DNA of 64,000 nt. It comes from Acidimicrobiales bacterium. Its GTDB lineage: Bacteria; Actinomycetota; Acidimicrobiia; Acidimicrobiales; JADJXE01. Below are positions 9,704 to 16,659 of this stretch, piece after piece. The notes below the pieces were generated by a model, which saw nothing but the letters and a program-made list of their open reading frames with translations, was not told the origin of the DNA and did not search any database. The DNA is taken from contig JADJXE010000001.1 in NCBI GenBank assembly GCA_016716005.1, positions 3,440,521 to 3,504,520 on the forward strand. The letters run 5' to 3'. The position numbers and the translations under genes are program-made. Within the stretch, counting starts at the first letter, position 1. Each line of letters begins with the position of its first letter.

Positions 9704-10821
9704 GCCACCTGCTCGTCACCAACGACTTCCCGCCCAAGCACGGGGGGATCCAGAGCTACCTGTGGGAGCTCTGGCGGCGCCTGCCGTCGGGTGAGGTCAC
9801 GGTGCTCACCACGCCGTACGCCGGCGCGGCGGTGTGGGACCGCGACCAGCCCTTCGCGGTGGCGCGCACCCGCGAGCCCGTGCTCGTGCCCACCCCCGGG
9901 CTGGCCCGGCGCATCGACCGCCTCGCCGACCGGGTGGGCGCGTCGCTCGTGCTGCTCGACCCGGCCCTGCCGCTCGGGCTGGTGGGCCCGGCGCTGCGCC
10001 ACCCCTACGGCCTCGTCCTCCACGGCGCCGAGGTCACGGTGCCGCGCCGCCTGCCCGGCACCCGGCTCGTGCTGCGACACGTGTTGCGGGGGGCTCGCCT
10101 GGTGGTGGCCGCCGGCGGCTACCCCGCGGCCGAGGCCGAGCGGGCCGCCGGCTGCCCGCTGCCGGTCGTGGTGGTGCCGCCGGGGGTCGACGTCGAGCGC
10201 TTCCGCCCGCTCGACCCGGCCGAGCGGCGGGCGGCCAGGGTCGGCGCCGGCCTCCCTCCCGAGGGGCCCCTGGTGACGAGCGTGAGCCGCCTGGTGCCCC
10301 GCAAGGGCATGGACGTGCTGATCGAGGCAGCCGCCCGGTTGGGCCGAGCCCGGCCCGACCTGGTGGTCGCCATCGCGGGAGGCGGCCGGGACCGCGGGCG
10401 CCTCGAGCGGCTCGTCGCTCGCACGGGGGCGCCGGTGCGCTTCCTCGGGCGGGTCCCCGACGAGCAGCTGCCGGCCGTCTACGGCGCCGGCGACGTGTTC
10501 GCCATGCTGTGCCGCAACCGGTGGGCCGGCCTGGAGCAGGAGGGCTTCGGGATCGTGTTCCTCGAGGCCGCGGCCTGCGGCGTGCCCCAGGTCGCAGGGT
10601 CGAGCGGGGGTGCGGCCGAGGCCGTGGAGCACGGGGTCACCGGGCTGGTGGTCGACGAGCCCGGCCGCGTGGAGCGGGTGGCCGTCGCCCTCGCCTCCGT
10701 GCTCGACGACCCGGATCGGCGGGACCGCCTCGGCCGTGCCGCTCGCCTCCGGGTCGAGCGCGCCTTCTCGTACGACGGGCTGGCGCAGCGGCTGGCCGAG
10801 GCGTTGGCAGCCGTCCCCTGA
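9700..10821 (+). CDS. GT4-family glycosyltransferase (PimB-like mannosyltransferase candidate)
   Basis: GTG 9700 overlaps the queG stop (GTGA). EQEGFGIVFLEAAACGVPQVAGSSGGAAEAV is the GT4 E-x7-E region. Synteny with SRPBCC resembles the mycobacterial pimB neighbourhood. Confidence 0.8.
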   Translation: MSHLLVTNDFPPKHGGIQSYLWELWRRLPSGEVTVLTTPYAGAAVWDRDQPFAVARTREPVLVPTPGLARRIDRLADRVGASLVLLDPALPLGLVGPALRHPYGLVLHGAEVTVPRRLPGTRLVLRHVLRGARLVVAAGGYPAAEAERAAGCPLPVVVVPPGVDVERFRPLDPAERRAARVGAGLPPEGPLVTSVSRLVPRKGMDVLIEAAARLGRARPDLVVAIAGGGRDRGRLERLVARTGAPVRFLGRVPDEQLPAVYGAGDVFAMLCRNRWAGLEQEGFGIVFLEAAACGVPQVAGSSGGAAEAVEHGVTGLVVDEPGRVERVAVALASVLDDPDRRDRLGRAARLRVERAFSYDGLAQRLAEALAAVP

Positions 10822-10874
10822 CCGGCGCCGACCTTCCCGGCCCGGCTTCCACCGGCGGCCCGCCGGCTGAGAAG

Positions 10875-11405
10875 ATGGGTCCCGTGGCCCTGGCCGATCC
10901 CCATCCGAGCGCCGCGCCGCCCGGCCGCCCGCCGCTGGCCGCGCTGGCGGGCCGCGGCCGCGGCATCGTGCGCGCATCCTGGGCCGGGACGGCCGTGTTC
11001 ACGCTCACGGCGGTGGCGGCTGCCATCGCCCCGGGGGCCCTCACCGCCGTCGCCGTCGCCGTCGCCCTGGCCCTCTTCGCGGCCGGCTGCGTGGTCTTCC
11101 TGTGGGCCTACGCCATCGCGGTGGGTCGGAGCCGCACCGACGCCATCGGCATCGGTGGCCTCTTCTTCCTGGCCGGCAGCGCACCCCGGGCGGCGCAGCT
11201 GCACCTGATGGGCTCGTTCGGCGTCGAGGTGGTGGTGGCCCTGACCACCGCCGCACTGCGCCCCTTCACGGGCCTGGCCTTCGGCACCCTCGTCCCGGTC
11301 TTCGGTCTCGGTCTGGCCGGGCTCTGGGGGGCACGCCACGGCACGTTCGGGCCCCGCGCCGCGCCGGCGCAGGTGCCGGCGCCGGCCTCGGCCGAGGACG
11401 GCTGA
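10875..11405 (+). CDS. hypothetical integral membrane protein
   Basis: ATG 10875. 176 aa with about four hydrophobic helices (AVFTLTAVAAAIAPGAL..., GIGGLFFLAG..., FGTLVPVFGLGLAGLWG). Confidence 0.6.
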   Translation: MGPVALADPHPSAAPPGRPPLAALAGRGRGIVRASWAGTAVFTLTAVAAAIAPGALTAVAVAVALALFAAGCVVFLWAYAIAVGRSRTDAIGIGGLFFLAGSAPRAAQLHLMGSFGVEVVVALTTAALRPFTGLAFGTLVPVFGLGLAGLWGARHGTFGPRAAPAQVPAPASAEDG

Positions 11406-11486
11406 GCCGGTGGTGCGACGCAGGGTGCCGCGAACGCGCGCACAATCTCTCCGGCCCGGACCCCACCGGCCGAGGGAGAGGTCCCG

Positions 11487-11930
11487 ATGACCGACCAGGC
11501 GACCCTGCGCACCACGATCGACGCCGCGCCCGAGCGCTGCTTCGCGGTCGCCGTCGACCTGGAGCGCTACCCGACGTGGGCGCGCGACGTGAAGCAGGTC
11601 GCGGTGCTGGCCCGGGACGAGGCCGGCCGCCCGCTCGACGTCGAGTTCCGGGCGGCCGCCATGGGGCGGAGCACGCGGTACGTGCTGCGGTACGACTACG
11701 CCGAGGCGCCCCGCCGCCTGAGCTGGCGGCTCCTCGAGGGCGACATCATGGGCCGCCTCGACGGCACGTACCAGTTCGACCCGGCCGCGGGCCGGCCCGA
11801 CGCCACCGACGTCACCTACCACCTGGTGGTCGAGCTCGTCACCCCCCTGCCGGCGTTCGTGAAGCGCCGGGCCGAGGCCCGGATCGTGAACACCGCGCTG
11901 CGCGAGCTCAGGGCGCAGGCGGAGGCCTGA
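11487..11930 (+). CDS. SRPBCC (START/cyclase-dehydrase) family protein
   Basis: 147 aa: IDAAPERCFAVAVDLERYPTWARDVK...RYVLRYDY...LDGTYQFD. This is the typical polyketide_cyc2-like layout. Confidence 0.8.
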   Translation: MTDQATLRTTIDAAPERCFAVAVDLERYPTWARDVKQVAVLARDEAGRPLDVEFRAAAMGRSTRYVLRYDYAEAPRRLSWRLLEGDIMGRLDGTYQFDPAAGRPDATDVTYHLVVELVTPLPAFVKRRAEARIVNTALRELRAQAEA

Positions 11931-11933
11931 CCC

Positions 11934-12266
11934 GTGACCACTCCCGGCACCGACGAGCCCGGTGACCGGCCGGGGGCCGCCGTCGCCCAGTGGGTGGCGA
12001 TGGAGGTCATCGCCGCGGCCCGCGGCGTGCTCGACGCGGCCGAGCAGCTGGTGCGCGACCCGGAGCAGGCGGCCCGCCTGGCCGCGGTGCTCCCCGACCT
12101 GGTGCGCTCGGGCATGCAGGTGATCGCCGGGATGGCGGCCCCTCCTGCGTCGCCGGCCGCCGCTGGGGCTCAACCTTCCGCCCAGCCGGCCGACGGGACC
12201 GGGGAGGTCGACGGCCCACCGGACGCGCCACCCGGGGGTGCCGGCGCACCCTCGGCCGCGGGCTGA
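11934..12266 (+). CDS. hypothetical protein
   Basis: GTG 11934 lies 3 nt after the SRPBCC stop, suggesting coupling. 110 aa, with a helical N-terminal half and a P/A/G-rich tail. Confidence 0.5.
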   Translation: MTTPGTDEPGDRPGAAVAQWVAMEVIAAARGVLDAAEQLVRDPEQAARLAAVLPDLVRSGMQVIAGMAAPPASPAAAGAQPSAQPADGTGEVDGPPDAPPGGAGAPSAAG

Positions 12267-12343
12267 CCGGCCCCGGTCTCGGCTGCGGGCAGGCGGTACC
12301 CTGCGGGGGCCGGCCCGGCCCCGGTGGCGACGAGGTCGATGAC

Positions 12344-14710
12344 ATGAGGCTGCTCGAACTGCGTGCACCCGGCGACCCGCCGCTCCTCGTGCCGCTCCAC
12401 CCCCGTGTCACCGTGGTGACCGGGCTCACGCCAGCCGAGCGCGCTCGGCTGGTGGACGCCCTCGACACCCTGCGCACGACCCGTGGGGCGGGGCTGGGCG
12501 GGGTGGTCGAGGCCCACGGTGTGCTGTTCGACCTGGCGCCCGTCACGCTCGACCTGCTCGACGTCCCCGCCGACCTCGACCTGGTCGTGCGGGCCGGCGA
12601 GCTGCCCGGAGCGGTCGACGCCGAGCGCGACCGGGCCCGCGCCGCGCTCGAGCGGGAGGTGGCCGAGGCCGTCGCCCGCCAGGAGCGGGCCCGGGGTGCG
12701 CTGGACGAGGCGGGCGAGGCCCGTCGCGCCGCCGAGGCCGCAGCAGCCGCCCCCCCACCGTCCCCGGGAGCCACGGGTCGGGCCGCCGAGGCGGCCTCGG
12801 CGGCGCTGGCGGGTCTGCGCGCCCAGCTCGAGCGCTGCCGGGCCGATCGGGCCAGGGCCGAGGCCTCCCTGCTGGGTGCCGAGCCCCCCGCCGACGATCC
12901 CGCCGCCGCCCGCGCCGCCCTCGTGCAGGCCGAGGCCGACGTCACCAGGCTCGAGGCGGAGCTGGCCGAGGCCCGCCGCGAGCTGGCCGCGCACGACGAC
13001 GCCGCGCTCGCCGCGCCCGGGCCCGGGCCCGGCCCCGGTGAGCCGGCGGCCGCGACCGGGGCCGAGCTGGAGACCGAGCGCGGCGCCGTCGCCGCGGAGC
13101 TCGAGCGGGCCCGCTCCGCCGAGGCCGCGTCCGGGCCGGTCCGCGAGGCCCTCGACGCGGTGCTGGGCGCGCGGAGCGGCCCCGACCCGGTGGCGGTCGC
13201 GGAGCTGGCCGAGGAGTGGCGGCAGCTGCTCGAGGCGGGCGATGGCGAAGCCGCCGATGTCGATCCGTCGGCCAGGCTCGAGGCGGCCCGGGCCCGTGCG
13301 GCCACGGCCGCCGGCGACGTGGCCGCCCTGGAGGGCGAGGTCCGCCCGGCCCGCATGACCGTTGAGGAGCGAGCCGCCCTCGACCAGGCCCACGAGGCCG
13401 TCATCGTCGCCCAGGAGCGGGTCGACCGCAGCCTGGTGAAGGGTCGTCCCCGGCGCGAGCTGGAGGAGGTCCGGCGCGTCGAGCAGGAGCTGCTGTCGCG
13501 GTTCGGCTTCGGGTCGTACAGCGACTACCTGCTCAGCGGGTCCATGGTGCAGACCGATCCCGCCGCCGAGTTCCGCCTGGCGACGGCCAAGGGCGAGCTG
13601 GCCTCGGCCCAGGAGGAGCTGGACGCCCTGCTGGCCGGGCCGGCGCCGGGCGGCGAGCTCGCCCGGTGGCGGGCCGACCTCGAGGCCCGGACCGCGGCGC
13701 TGCTCGGTCACGACCCCGGCCCGGATCCCCTGGCAGCGCTGACCGACACCCGCCGGTCGCTCGAGCAGCACGAGGCCGAGCTGGCCGACACGCTCCGCCG
13801 GGCCGGCGCCGGCCCGTCCGACGGCGACCCGGTGGCTGCGGCCAGGCTCTGGCTGGGCGAGCGTGACGCGGCCCGCTCCGTGACAGAGCTCGAGGCCGAG
13901 CTGGCGGCCCTCGACCGGCGGGCCGCAGCGCCCCCACCCGCGCCCGTGGCCGGCCCTTCGCCCGACGAGCAGGCGCGGGCCGCCCTGGTCACCCGGATCG
14001 CCGCCCTCGAGGTCTCGCTGGACGAGCAAGAGGCGGTGCGGCGCGAGCTGGCGGCGCGCGTCGGCCGGCCCGACCGGTCGGGCTGGGGCCCGAACGTGGT
14101 GCCGGGCCCGTGGGTGACGGGTGGGCCACCCGGGCCCCCGCCCGCAGAGCCGGCGGCAGCCGACGAGCGGATCGCCGCGCTCCAGGCTGCGGTGGCCGCC
14201 GAGGCCGAGGCGACGGCCACGCTGCGCGCCGCCGAAGCCGATCTGGCGCCCCTCGCCGGAGCAGCTGCCGCCGGCTCGCCCGGCCGGGCGGCGGGCGAGC
14301 GGTCCGATCCCGCAGCCGAGCTGGCGGCGGCGCTGGCGGCCGAGGCCGGTGCGGCGCGGGTGCTGGCCGATGTCGCAGCCGTGCGCCGGGCGGTGGAGGC
14401 GCAGCTGGAGGAGCTGCGCTCGCTCCCCGCGGAGGTCGAGCCGGTCGAGGCGGAGGACATCGAGTACTACCTGCTGACGCGCCTCGCAGGGCAGCGGGGG
14501 GTGTCGTACGCCGGCTCCGCCCCGCTGGTGATCGACGACATCCTCGGCGTGCTCGACGCCGTGGACGTGGTTCGGGTGCTCGACCGGCTCGAGCGGATGG
14601 CCGACTCGGTGCAGCTCGTCCTGCTGAGCGACCGCCCCGAGCTGGTGGGATGGGCCAAGCGGCTCCCGGCCGACCGGGCCGCGCTGGTCGCGGTGCGGGC
14701 GGCGGCCTAG
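12344..14710 (+). CDS. SMC/RecF-like coiled-coil protein with a degenerate ATPase head
   Basis: Starts at ATG 12344. The N-terminus MRLLELRAPG...RVTVVTGLTPAERARLVDAL is an SMC-type head start without a P-loop. About 600 aa of A/E/R/L coiled coil follow. The C-terminus ...APLVIDDILGVLDAVDVVRVLDRLERMADSVQLVLLSD is Walker-B-like. Confidence 0.7.
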   Translation: MRLLELRAPGDPPLLVPLHPRVTVVTGLTPAERARLVDALDTLRTTRGAGLGGVVEAHGVLFDLAPVTLDLLDVPADLDLVVRAGELPGAVDAERDRARAALEREVAEAVARQERARGALDEAGEARRAAEAAAAAPPPSPGATGRAAEAASAALAGLRAQLERCRADRARAEASLLGAEPPADDPAAARAALVQAEADVTRLEAELAEARRELAAHDDAALAAPGPGPGPGEPAAATGAELETERGAVAAELERARSAEAASGPVREALDAVLGARSGPDPVAVAELAEEWRQLLEAGDGEAADVDPSARLEAARARAATAAGDVAALEGEVRPARMTVEERAALDQAHEAVIVAQERVDRSLVKGRPRRELEEVRRVEQELLSRFGFGSYSDYLLSGSMVQTDPAAEFRLATAKGELASAQEELDALLAGPAPGGELARWRADLEARTAALLGHDPGPDPLAALTDTRRSLEQHEAELADTLRRAGAGPSDGDPVAAARLWLGERDAARSVTELEAELAALDRRAAAPPPAPVAGPSPDEQARAALVTRIAALEVSLDEQEAVRRELAARVGRPDRSGWGPNVVPGPWVTGGPPGPPPAEPAAADERIAALQAAVAAEAEATATLRAAEADLAPLAGAAAAGSPGRAAGERSDPAAELAAALAAEAGAARVLADVAAVRRAVEAQLEELRSLPAEVEPVEAEDIEYYLLTRLAGQRGVSYAGSAPLVIDDILGVLDAVDVVRVLDRLERMADSVQLVLLSDRPELVGWAKRLPADRAALVAVRAAA

Positions 14711-15408
14711 TGCTCCCGCTCGAGGTGCGGGCCAGCGCCGACGCCGCATCGTTGGCCGCCGCCGCCGCCCACCTGCTGGCCGTCGAGCTCCGCGGTGCCG
14801 TGGCTGCGCGCGGGCAGGCGACGATGGCCGTGAGCGGCGGCACCACGCCCTGGGCGATGCTGGCCGAGCTGGTCCGGTGCGAGGTGCCCTGGGAGGCCGT
14901 CCACCTGTTCCAGGTCGACGAGCGCGTCGCCCCCGACGGCGACGCCGATCGGAACCTGACCGCCCTGCAGTCGGCGCTGCTCGACCGGGCGCCGATCCCG
15001 CCCGAGCACGTGCACCCCATGCCCGTCACCAGCCCCGATCTGCGGGCCGCGGCGGCGGCCTACGCCGACGAGCTCGCCGCCGTGTGTGGCGAGGGCGGCG
15101 CGCTCGACGTCGTCCACCTCGGCCTGGGCGACGACGGGCACACCGCGTCGTGGCCTCCCGGCGATCCCGTGATCGACGTGACCGACGCCGACGTCGCCGT
15201 CGTCGGGCCCTACCGGGGTCACCTGCGCCTCACCCTCACGCTGCCGGTGGTGAATCGGGCCGTCCGGGTGCTCTGGCTGGTGAGCGGGGCGGCCAAGGTG
15301 CCCGCCCTGCGGGGGCTGCTCGACGGCGACCTCGCCCTGCCGGCCGCGCACGTGCGGCGGGCCGCCGCCGTCGTGCTCGCCGATCGTGACGCGCTGGGCG
15401 AGCCCTGA
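14710..15408 (+). CDS. pgl: 6-phosphogluconolactonase
   Basis: GTG 14710 overlaps the previous TAG. MAVSGGTTP, FQVDERV and LGLGDDGHTASWPPGD are Pgl/DevB signatures. Confidence 0.85.
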   Translation: MLPLEVRASADAASLAAAAAHLLAVELRGAVAARGQATMAVSGGTTPWAMLAELVRCEVPWEAVHLFQVDERVAPDGDADRNLTALQSALLDRAPIPPEHVHPMPVTSPDLRAAAAAYADELAAVCGEGGALDVVHLGLGDDGHTASWPPGDPVIDVTDADVAVVGPYRGHLRLTLTLPVVNRAVRVLWLVSGAAKVPALRGLLDGDLALPAAHVRRAAAVVLADRDALGEP

Positions 15409-15537
15409 GCGGACGCGAGATCACGGTCGAGCGATCGGGGCGTCAGGCGTACGATGCAATCGGGGCCCGGGGACCCACCGGTCGCCGATCCCCGTCGAGG
15501 GCTCCGGGCCGCGCCGCCCGGGGCGGAGGAGGGAGCC

Positions 15538-16659
15538 ATGCCCGTGATCAGCGAGGATGCGGTCCGCGAGCTCGCCTCTCTGAAGGGGGAGAACGGGCCG
15601 GTCACGTCGTGCTACCTCGACGTGGACGGCAGCCGGTACCTCGGGCACCACGACTACCAGCGTCAGCTCGACCTGATGCTGCGTCGGGTCCGCTCGAAGC
15701 CCGGTCTGGGGTCGGCGGTCGCCGCCGATCTCGACCGCATCGAGGCCCACGTCCGGCGCGGCGTCGAGCGGGCGCACGTGCGGGGGCTCGCGATCTTCGC
15801 CTGCTCGGCCGACGGGCTGTGGCGGGTGTTCGAGCTCCCCGTCCCCGTCTACAGCCAGATCGTGGTCAACCACAGCCCCTACGTGCGTCAGCTCGAGCTG
15901 CTCGTCGACGAGTACGAGCGCTTCGGGCTGCTGCTGGCCGACAAGCAGCGGGCGCGGATGTTCGTGTTCGAGCTGGGCGAGCTGATCGACCGCAGCGAGC
16001 TGCTCGACGAGCTGCCCCGCGAGTTCGACGACAACCGGGGGCACTTCTGGAAGACCCACCAGCAGAGCCAGCTCGACGAGGCGACCCTCCAGCACCTGCG
16101 GCACGCGGCCGCGGTGGCGTTCCACGTCTTCCAGGGGAACGGCGGGTTCGATCGCTTCCTGCTCGGCGGCACGCCAGAGGTCACCGGCGACCTCGAGCGC
16201 CTGCTCCACCCGTACCTCCGGGAGCGGCTCGTCGACCACGTGCAGGTGCCGGTGAACGCCTCCCTCGACCAGATCCGCAGGGCCGCCCACGAGGCCGAGG
16301 AGCGGGTCGAGCGCCGGCGGGAGGCGGAGCTCGTAGCTCGCCTGCGTGACGCCGCGGGAGCCGGCCGCAAGGGCGTCGCCGGCCTCGATGCCACGCTCAA
16401 GGCGCTGGTGCAGCGCCGTGTCGAGTACCTGCTCGTGTCGCAGGGCTTCACCGCTCCGGGCTGGCGCTGCGAGGCGTGCGGCCATCTCGGGATGTTGGGC
16501 CGCGCCTGCCCGGGCTGCGGCGAGCAGATGGCCCACGTGGAGGACGTGGTCGAGGAGGCCGTCGAGGAGGCGCTGGCCCAGCACTGCAAGCTCGAGATCT
16601 GCGTGGGCAACGCCGACCTCGACGTGCTCGGGCGCATCGGCGCCCTCCTGCGCTTCTAG
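15538..16659 (+). CDS. bacterial eRF1/Pelota/Vms1-like (baeRF) protein with a C-terminal Zn-ribbon insert
   Basis: ATG 15538 follows ggaggaggga. The N-terminal ...GPVTSCYLDVDG and the ~370-aa three-domain layout look like baeRF-type proteins, from memory. Contains CxxC-x9-CxxC (CEACGHLGMLGRACPGCG). Confidence 0.65.
   Translation: MPVISEDAVRELASLKGENGPVTSCYLDVDGSRYLGHHDYQRQLDLMLRRVRSKPGLGSAVAADLDRIEAHVRRGVERAHVRGLAIFACSADGLWRVFELPVPVYSQIVVNHSPYVRQLELLVDEYERFGLLLADKQRARMFVFELGELIDRSELLDELPREFDDNRGHFWKTHQQSQLDEATLQHLRHAAAVAFHVFQGNGGFDRFLLGGTPEVTGDLERLLHPYLRERLVDHVQVPVNASLDQIRRAAHEAEERVERRREAELVARLRDAAGAGRKGVAGLDATLKALVQRRVEYLLVSQGFTAPGWRCEACGHLGMLGRACPGCGEQMAHVEDVVEEAVEEALAQHCKLEICVGNADLDVLGRIGALLRF

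Follow-up and report, generated by a model that had tools for sequence, protein, structure and literature searches.

SMC-class proteins are defined mechanistically by ATP-driven engagement of their heads, and a gene that appears to encode an SMC-like protein with a ruined ATP site raises the question of what such an architecture does without its motor. A gene of this kind lies in a 64,000-nucleotide stretch of contig JADJXE010000001.1 from an Acidimicrobiales bacterium (assembly GCA_016716005.1, positions 3,440,521 to 3,504,520 of the forward strand; herein referred to as the window, with positions counted from its first letter). An earlier note on this DNA, made from the sequence alone, had described a 788-aa protein with an SMC/RecF/RecN-type head, a long coiled coil and no P-loop, encoded at the end of a possible three-gene operon. 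We find that this protein (herein referred to as BIG) belongs, on the evidence of structure models, to the SMC/Rad50/RecN class of ATP-binding cassette (ABC) proteins and that sequence alignments show the nucleotide motifs of its head to be replaced throughout a family spanning the order Acidimicrobiales. We regard it as probable that BIG is a nucleotide-independent, long-armed scaffold that is paired in most of its relatives with a separate Get3/ArsA-type ATPase.

12344..14710, + strand: BIG, SMC-class pseudo-ATPase of 788 aa, complete gene including the stop codon (open reading frame, homologues, codon-position GC, models)

The window has a GC content of 70-80%; codon-position GC in the open reading frame (ORF), together with homologues of similar length, supports a real gene. 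Over its whole length the BIG frame has GC fractions of 0.89/0.57/0.93 at codon positions 1/2/3, and this coding pattern is missing from the 5' extension of the mechanically defined ORF (11990-12343), for which reason we place the start at the ATG at 12344, with a GAGG about 9 nt 5' of it and the stop codon at 14708-14710. The 788-aa ORF, the N-terminal residues MRLLELRAPG..RVTVVTGLTPAERARLVDAL and the strings PGPGPGPG (aa 225-232) and APLVIDD (aa 726-732) are all present where they had been reported. Two antisense ORFs (12170..14749, minus strand, 859 aa, and 12007..13404, minus strand, 465 aa) were rejected as genes, since such frames are expected at about 80% GC and the third-position GC (GC3) signature of the plus frame, together with the homologues, explains the region. 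A pseudogene reading of BIG was likewise rejected, the family being clearly constrained.

Head, arms and apex

The protein can be divided as follows.

12344..12616, + strand: N-terminal head half, aa 1-91 (predicted secondary structure, conservation)
12617..13348, + strand: arm 1, aa 92-335 (helices, composition, periodicity)
13016..13039, + strand: PGPGPGPG break in arm 1, aa 225-232 (sequence, low model confidence)
13349..13558, + strand: central apex block, aa 336-405, helical (conservation; identity 0.41, as in the heads)
13559..14422, + strand: arm 2, aa 406-693 (helices, composition, length co-variation)
14423..14707, + strand: C-terminal head half, aa 694-788 (models, conservation, profile matches)

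According to the models, the first ~90 and the last ~95 residues pack into one compact ABC-type head. AlphaFold2 (AF2) was run on the full-length protein with the family alignment (mean predicted local distance difference test score, pLDDT, 82) and on a head-only query in which window residues 1-118 were fused to residues 668-788, with exact full-length homologues as the remaining alignment rows (pLDDT 85; predicted template modeling score, pTM, 0.74). The top 50 PDB matches of the head model in Foldseek are all ABC ATPases, with probabilities of at least 0.92 and of 1.00 for the top ones; they are led by the Smc head (5xns_A, E 1.4e-5), the RecN head (4aby_A, E 1.8e-5, 17-18% identity), PARIS AriA, cohesin SMC1A and Rad50 (3auy_A, TMq 0.49). 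The nucleotide-binding domains of transporters, which carry no coiled coil (NrtD, MetN, FtsE, LptB and MacB), are also matched, indicating that the similarity resides in the alpha/beta core. The best PDB matches of the full-length model are Rad50 (7zr1_C, E 4e-7), Smc6, Smc4, MukB and JetC, at template modeling scores (TM-scores) that the length and flexibility of the arms keep low. The reading of the two ends as an SMC/RecF/RecN-type head around a long coiled coil was thus borne out by the models, and we assign BIG structurally to the SMC/Rad50/RecN class; for a computational result, this model-based assignment is solid.

Sequence comparison points in the same direction with much less force. 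A profile of the C-terminal half has Rad50 and UvrA as its best 17 matches in the PDB, and these fall at Walker B, the D-loop and the H-loop (E 0.025-0.2). Pfam SMC_N is the commonest sub-threshold match of the family (5 of 22 members; 11 bits vs a cutoff of 40). In hhalign comparisons with Escherichia coli RecN, the N-terminal half scores 27.4 (aa 16-48 on RecN 18-50) and the C-terminal half 21.7 (RecN 456-496), both ungapped, and the C-terminal half scores 24.7 against E. coli SbcC (residues 980-1013); the highest score is 16.8 among unrelated and reversed sequences and 19.3 among 30 shuffles. The hhalign probabilities are just 3-15%, such that the similarity to RecN is statistically weak at the sequence level. 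Smc, RecN and Rad50 heads are thus among the leading matches when the termini are searched by structure, a check that the earlier note had proposed, with weak sequence support in the correct register. Matches of the N-terminal profile to designed armadillo-repeat proteins and a cytochrome trimer were rejected as artefacts, as they sum many weak repeats (each with a domain i-Evalue of ~100).

The family alignment resolves three conserved blocks, at the N terminus (~90 aa), the center (~70 aa) and the C terminus (~90 aa), that are separated by poorly conserved sequence rich in Ala, Glu and Arg. Mean pairwise identity is 0.41 in the N-terminal head half, 0.26 in arm 1, 0.41 in the apex, 0.29 in arm 2 and 0.48 in the C-terminal head half. 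The N-terminal block (consensus MRLLQL..LHPxVTVVxGLDxxxRxxLxDA..EAHGVLFDL..DLPG) is built in the AF2 models from three beta strands, a loop, a helix (residues 30-44), a beta hairpin and a short helix, with H19, G53, H58-G59 and L87-P88 conserved. The C-terminal block (EExEWYLLARLAAQRxVSxAGSLPLVLDDALxGL..LERMAxAVQVIVVSDDP..WA) has the order alpha-beta-alpha-beta-alpha-beta; R713, A715, R718, G724 and P727 are invariant in all 63 sequences over which columns were counted, and Q757 and W770 are present in 62 of them. The central block (LExAHAxVLxAxDRAxxRFGGARA..LDRLGFxSYSDYxMG) has no relative in the PDB or Pfam and is specific to the family; it is presumed to be a turn-around or dimerization module.

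Between these blocks the models show two arms of interrupted helix, each ~250-300 residues long, the second of which returns alongside the first to form an antiparallel coiled coil. Alanine makes up 24-32% of residues 92-693, which are also rich in Glu, Arg and Leu and predicted to be helical with several Pro/Gly breaks; this agrees with the ~600 aa of Ala/Glu/Arg/Leu-rich coiled coil, broken by a Pro-Gly repeat, of the earlier description. The helix breaks of arm 1 lie at about aa 136-142, 179-185, 224-235, 278-281 and 305-307, and the Pro-Gly repeat itself is predicted to be disordered (pLDDT below 50 over aa 226-237); the Pro/Gly-rich breaks of arm 2 include low-confidence loops at aa 530-537, 575-600 and 645-652. 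Both arms show a hydrophobic periodicity of ~3.5 residues (3.4-3.6). Across 185 proteins, the lengths of the N-terminal arm (104-409 aa) and the C-terminal arm (148-448 aa) co-vary with a Pearson r of 0.90 and a slope of 0.88, a statistic that is inflated by shared ancestry; such co-variation is expected if the arms pair antiparallel, as in SMC proteins. Every region of the protein is acidic, both head halves included, with a net charge of -48 and an isoelectric point (pI) of 4.65 for the window protein and a median net charge of -73 for the family, and this strong acidity is a weak argument against direct binding of DNA.

The state of the nucleotide site

We located the equivalents of the ABC motifs from the RecN and Rad50 alignments and counted residues in each column over the 63 sequences.

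12422..12445, + strand: degenerate Walker A, aa 27-34, GLTPAERA (ungapped alignment to RecN GETGAGKS)
14453..14470, + strand: signature-motif position, aa 704-709, EDIEYY (inferred from the helix that follows)
14522..14539, + strand: Walker-B-like strand, aa 727-732, PLVIDD (alignment to Rad50/UvrA ILDEP and RecN IFDE)
14609..14635, + strand: H-loop equivalent, aa 756-764, VQLVLLSDR (aligned with Rad50 QVILVSHD and RecN TQVMCVTH)

The alignments show that every ABC motif for nucleotide binding or hydrolysis is replaced family-wide and that the replacements are themselves conserved. The segment in place of Walker A has the length of GxxGxGKS and the family consensus G27-L-D-x-x-x-R33-x, in which the last two of the three glycines and the Ser/Thr are missing and R33 aligns with the Walker A Lys; G27 is found in 53/63 sequences, D29 in 40/63 and R33 in 56/63, with His at the latter position in five. 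Among 143 further members the Lys-equivalent position is Arg in 120, His in nine and Lys in six, and a search of ~215 family proteins for [AG]xxxxGK[ST] in the head found none, so that the loss of the P-loop reported for the window (GxxGxGKS to GLTPAERA) extends to the whole family. The sole Walker-A-like string in the family (ASRIGGKS, aa 311-318 of protein P0016) lies in the R-F-G-G-A-R-A stretch of the apex rather than in the head and, being confined to one member, was rejected as a chance occurrence. In both the full-length and the head model a helix starts at residue 30, and residues 30-33 are helical rather than loop, suggesting that the P-loop has largely been absorbed into the helix.

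The loss goes beyond the P-loop, to which the earlier note had confined it. At the signature position the consensus is E-E-x-E707-W708-Y709 (E707 and W708 each in 53/63, Y709 in 50/63) with no S-G-G, preceding the conserved helix YLLARLAAQR. The Walker-B-like strand that had been described as retained (APLVIDD) is indeed present with its first acidic residue (consensus P-L-V-L-D731-D732; D731 in 60/63), but the catalytic Glu is replaced by Asp; D732 is found in 54/63 sequences, the others having Gly, Arg or Asn, and Glu occurs once in 63. The H-loop consensus is V-Q-V-I-V-V-[STG]-[DE], most commonly V-Q-V-I-V-V-S-D-D, with Q757 in 62/63, Asp or Glu at position 763 in 59/63, and His in no sequence. 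The conservation of these replacement residues suggests a site that has been remodeled under selection rather than one in decay.

An order-wide family and its neighbors

BIG represents a previously undescribed family that spans the order Acidimicrobiales. A word-indexed search returned 21 homologues of 670-890 aa, all unnamed and none with a Pfam domain; an exhaustive profile search over representatives of 50%-identity clusters returned 1,702 at E<=1e-3, 1,021 at E<=1e-10 and 520 at E<=1e-30. When two narrow peptide patterns, built on a nine-sequence C-terminal alignment, were run over species-representative genomes, 59 loci that carry BIG were identified, nearly all of them in Acidimicrobiales; the carriers include Microthrixaceae, Ca. 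Microthrix, Iamiaceae, Ilumatobacteraceae, Acidimicrobiaceae, Rhabdothermincola and Aquihabitans, one of them a cultured organism with a complete genome (Aquihabitans sp. McL0605). The gene is single-copy and vertically inherited. Two contigs labeled as other taxa, an Acidobacteria bacterium (L032, QEUP01000029.1) and a Thermoleophilaceae bacterium (L064, JBBJOH010000078.1), carry a complete Acidimicrobiales-type module in full synteny and are probably mis-binned or mislabeled contigs of metagenome-assembled genomes (MAGs) rather than cases of transfer.

Searches of Pfam and NCBIfam with the single BIG sequence gave sub-threshold noise alone (Lzipper-MIP1 at 16.5 bits vs a cutoff of 32, and SH3_and_anchor), and PADLOC had no match for BIG, for the small protein encoded 5' of it or for the neighboring baeRF_family10 protein. 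Matches of full-length BIG to chlorophyll a/b-binding proteins in a phmmer search of the PDB were rejected as spurious effects of low complexity. The baeRF paper (PMC6514570), the papers on Rv2184c and a literature search on Rv3679/Rv3680/Get3 yielded nothing on BIG.

The genes that surround BIG in the window are as follows.

11487..11930, + strand: SRPBCC (Polyketide_cyc2) gene, 147 aa (Pfam PF10604, E 5.8e-13)
11934..12266, + strand: small helical protein, 110 aa (alignment, hidden Markov model search of all loci, GC3 0.89)
~14749-15408, + strand: gene of the 6-phosphogluconolactonase/glucosamine-6-P-isomerase family (Pfam Glucosamine_iso, E 6.9e-54)
15454..16659, + strand: aeRF1-like protein, baeRF_family10, Balon-like (Pfam PF18854, E 2.6e-23)

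As reported earlier, 3 nt separate the SRPBCC gene from the small gene and 77 nt the small gene from BIG. The suggestion that these three genes form an operon can be refined: SRPBCC, small gene and BIG are neighbors in most loci, but SRPBCC is probably not the key partner. The order recurs in ~50 loci, in which the usual arrangement is QueG, a GT4 glycosyltransferase, a ~150-aa membrane protein, SRPBCC, an ArsA-like ATPase, the small protein, BIG, baeRF_family10 and a ROK kinase; that is, the three genes do co-occur, but with an ATPase gene between SRPBCC and the small gene.

The small gene and BIG are the tightest pair at the locus; the gap between them has a median of 12 nt and does not exceed 15 nt in 26/48 loci. 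The small proteins, which are homologous across loci by alignment and hidden Markov model search, range from 70 to 126 aa, lie directly 5' of BIG and share a conserved core (Q..A....AAR..LD.AE....P); they match no Pfam, NCBIfam or PADLOC family. In one locus (L007; 960-3335, minus strand) a 791-aa Wzy_C (O-antigen ligase-like) gene stands between the small gene and BIG on the opposite strand, from which it follows that the two are separable.

A third, probable partner is the ATPase. Where the upstream flank is long enough, 47/51 loci encode a Get3/ArsA-like ATPase of ~390 aa (e.g., L001 6506-7675 and L005 3700-4881) between SRPBCC and the small gene; it has a Pfam ArsA_ATPase domain, scores 252 bits against TIGR00345 (cutoff 135), keeps an intact GKGGVGKT and ends in an ArsA_HSP20 domain, and by these sequence features it is a genuine member of the Get3/ArsA/TRC40 family. 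The small protein appears to be tied to it through its C terminus: in 47/49 loci that contain the ATPase, the last residues of the small protein before the stop codon are an acidic run and then [VI]-[QEHR]-[RH]-I-x-V-[SD] (e.g., L001 7672-7911), and the two exceptions (L037 and L065) look like frameshifted assemblies. In four MAGs from MFD long reads (L017, L026, L038 and L065), matches to ArsA, QueG, GT4, ROK or baeRF10 are split in two, which suggests assembly frameshifts and accounts for the exceptions to the tail rule. IxV-type tails bind the beta4/beta8 groove of alpha-crystallin/HSP20 domains in small heat-shock proteins, and by analogy the tail of the small protein is a candidate ligand of the HSP20-like domain of the ATPase.

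The window departs from this pattern. Its 64 kb contain no ArsA-like gene or sequence, and its small protein lacks the acidic run and the V-Q-R-I-x-V-S ending, having instead a C-terminal third rich in Pro, Ala and Gly (12140-12266). Three further loci (L039, L045 and L060) lack both the ATPase and the small gene. In a neighbor-joining tree these three form one clade and the window falls elsewhere, beside P0002, which keeps both ATPase and tail, so that the ATPase has been lost at least twice independently. This co-variation of tail and ATPase supports a link between them.

Around this core the neighborhood is stable. SRPBCC is a conserved upstream neighbor, lying 5' of the module in most loci with upstream flank, and baeRF10 is a conserved downstream neighbor, lying directly 3' of BIG and followed by the ROK kinase in most loci with downstream flank; baeRF10 is at most a putative member of the module. 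The baeRF10 protein also has a weak, sub-cutoff NCBIfam match to the MSMEG_1130/Rv2629 ribosome hibernation factor families, and Balon-type genes are reported to lie typically in stress-response operons, often adjoining Hsp20 (PMC10901736). The Glucosamine_iso gene between BIG and baeRF10 is present in the window but in no other locus that we examined, and has the appearance of an insertion specific to this lineage in a gene order that is otherwise fixed. Among ~50 BIG neighborhoods we recognized no DNA-metabolism gene, kleisin and Mre11/SbcD included, and no locus has a canonical SMC-class gene linked to BIG. A promoter and terminator scan of 10800-15500 found no promoter, and at 78% GC such a scan is uninformative; the sole terminator-like hairpin (11142-11159, + strand) lies inside the upstream ORF of a ~170-aa membrane protein and is probably due to chance.

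Candidate functions and relation to known systems

What, then, might a protein of this kind do? Any answer presupposes that the head is what the models make it. That convergence or an artefact of modeling underlies the likeness to ABC heads, BIG being a generic cytoskeletal-type coiled coil with unrelated alpha/beta ends, strikes us as hardly credible; marginal sequence-only evidence (E ~0.03, besides the low hhalign probabilities), the lack of any Pfam or NCBIfam model at threshold and head TM-scores below 0.5 speak for it, but it would have to account for 50 of 50 best head matches being ABC ATPases at Foldseek probabilities of at least 0.92, for both halves aligning without gaps on the RecN P-loop and Walker B/H-loop above reversed, shuffled and unrelated controls, and for an ABC-like order of strands and helices in both halves that pack together confidently (pTM 0.74). 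If the head is accepted, the residues that occupy its former active site could be read as a working one. BIG would then be an active, non-canonical NTPase that cycles like SMC, with Arg33 standing in for the Lys, Asp731-Asp732 serving Mg2+ and water, and Gln757, Arg713 and Arg718 contacting phosphate. The P-loop-equivalent segment has canonical length, R33 falls without gaps on the Walker A Lys of RecN and is conserved (56/63 and 120/143, with Lys in six), D731 (60/63) is followed by an acidic residue in 55/63 sequences, R713 and R718 do not vary, and 62/63 sequences keep Q757, all of which this proposal would explain. Every member, however, lacks the glycines that wrap the phosphate and the Ser/Thr that binds Mg2+, residues 30-33 are helical in the models, and the signature motif and the H-loop His are gone; we know of no ABC ATPase that works without a Gly-rich P-loop, and we consider such an activity quite improbable.

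Two further proposals accept a dead site and differ in what the head would engage. As a RecN/Rad50 derivative, BIG might organize or repair DNA independently of nucleotide, tethering it passively via its heads or apex: its closest folds (Smc, RecN, Rad50 and MukB) all handle DNA, the best register is with RecN, and a single-copy, vertically inherited gene would suit such a role. We nevertheless regard it as unlikely, given the acidity of every region noted above, given that the conserved neighborhood holds no nuclease, kleisin or DNA-metabolism gene and the protein neither Zn hook nor SMC hinge, and that its neighbors are a Get3-like ATPase, an SRPBCC protein, a Balon-like factor and a sugar kinase. 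Alternatively, the dead head of BIG could join the live head of a canonical SMC, RecN, Rad50 or other ABC ATPase and modulate it, in the manner of SMCL-1, a regulator of condensin (PMC5373644); conserved D29, R33, E707 and W708 at the former ATP-sandwich surface could form the head-head interface that this requires. We assign this idea a low probability: the full arms and apex are kept and the arm lengths co-vary within each protein, as expected of a self-contained rod rather than a head-only inhibitor, and no locus links a canonical SMC-class gene to BIG. A role in defense was rejected on the lack of any PADLOC match and on the stable synteny across the order.

We hypothesize instead that BIG is a nucleotide-independent, long-armed scaffold or tether, a reading that we hold to be somewhat better than even. 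The state of its motifs predicts that BIG neither binds nor hydrolyzes ATP and would be unable to run an ATP-driven cycle of head engagement; the former ATP pocket may have been remodeled into a fixed interface, possibly through a salt-bridge network of R33 with E707/D732 that would hold the heads closed or engaged, or bind a partner. BIG would work with the small helical protein encoded just 5' of it, to which it is often likely to be translationally coupled, and in most lineages also with the Get3/ArsA-type ATPase that carries the HSP20-like domain; the IxV tail of the small protein probably docks on that domain much as the tails of small heat-shock proteins do, and the nucleotide switch could thereby be supplied in trans. 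In the lineage of the window, where ATPase gene and tail are lost, the scaffold may do without this switch or draw on an ATPase from another part of the genome. The neighborhood is of housekeeping type, is inherited vertically and includes a Balon-like factor, a setting that suggests a role in cell biology or in stress/dormancy rather than one in DNA repair or defense.

Several points weigh against this interpretation. The head fold and the arm pairing derive from AlphaFold models from 22 sequences, the Foldseek TM-scores of the head lie at a moderate 0.35-0.49, and the arm-length correlation carries the inflation by shared ancestry noted above. Arg at the Lys position, an Asp pair at Walker B and the Gln have all been kept, which is compatible with a non-canonical nucleotide site. 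The links of the small protein to BIG and to the ATPase come from gene order, spacing and tail co-variation, and BIG persists in four lineages without an adjacent ATPase, three of which also lack the small gene, which implies that its core function does not strictly need either partner in cis. The more ambitious version of our hypothesis, a new SMC-like machine run in trans by a SIMIBI-class Get3/ArsA ATPase via an IxV-tailed adaptor that could organize a cellular structure or client, for instance in stress or dormancy, is accordingly put forward as a tentative and rather doubtful proposal.

If the scaffold reading is true, an order-wide family under purifying selection that keeps the SMC architecture would reveal the uses of this architecture once its motor is gone and the way in which an ATP site is turned into something else, and the conserved Get3/ArsA-HSP20 pairing via an IxV adaptor offers a testable idea, namely that one class of ATPase may have been swapped for another. 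The carriers are of environmental and industrial importance (Ca. Microthrix and Microthrixaceae of activated sludge, Iamiaceae and Ilumatobacteraceae), and the cultured Aquihabitans sp. McL0605 makes experiments feasible.

Among known proteins, RecN is one of the closest. Like BIG, it assembles a split ABC head from both termini and carries an antiparallel coiled coil that lacks a globular SMC hinge; it is the second-best fold match of the head and the one with the highest identity (17-18%), the E. coli protein aligns in ungapped register in both halves, and the two share H-x-x-x-T-V-h-x-G before the P-loop and h-D-A-L after it. RecN, however, has a canonical GETGAGKS, a signature motif, a Walker B DE and an H-loop His and is an ATPase on DNA, whereas BIG has none of these; BIG is also longer (~670-890 aa vs 553), strongly acidic and equipped with an apex block of its own, and it adjoins a Get3-like ATPase with no DNA-repair context.

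With SMC proper, Rad50/SbcC, MukB and JetC, BIG shares a head, a long folded-back arm and an apex, and its arms are interrupted as in SMC. It differs in lacking the SMC hinge (there is no match to Pfam SMC_hinge, and the central block has no PDB or Pfam relative) and in a head of ~185 aa, as opposed to ~300 aa, from which all nucleotide motifs are lost. SMC proper (Smc/ScpAB, condensin, cohesin, MukBEF and JetABC) works with a kleisin (ScpA, MukF or JetA) that bridges the heads and that SMC-like operons usually encode close by, and none is recognizable near BIG in ~50 neighborhoods; the adjacent small helical protein may bind the head or neck in some way. Unlike Rad50/SbcC, BIG has no zinc-hook CxxC, its single Cys lying in arm 1 (QLERCRAD) and its apex block having none, and there is no Mre11/SbcD in the region of the window or in ~50 homologous loci.

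The Get3/ArsA/TRC40 ATPases with an HSP20-like domain are the usual neighbors of BIG and not its relatives. The anti-phage systems built on SMC-like or ABC proteins (Lamassu, Wadjet, PARIS AriA and Gabija) differ in that BIG has no PADLOC match and occupies a stable, syntenic locus of housekeeping type. Degenerate ABC sites are already known; a full-length SMC-class family without any nucleotide motif, distributed order-wide and linked to a Get3-type ATPase, was not found in the databases or literature that we searched. A precedent for an SMC-derived, non-enzymatic binder or regulator is SMCL-1 of Caenorhabditis elegans (PMC5373644); the ATPase domain of this SMC-like protein is missing the residues needed for hydrolysis, and the protein binds condensin and regulates it negatively. 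SMCL-1 is a recent duplicate of SMC-4 that has neither coils nor hinge and occurs in a few Caenorhabditis species, whereas the BIG family is bacterial and order-wide, keeps its arms and apex, and has lost the P-loop itself as well.

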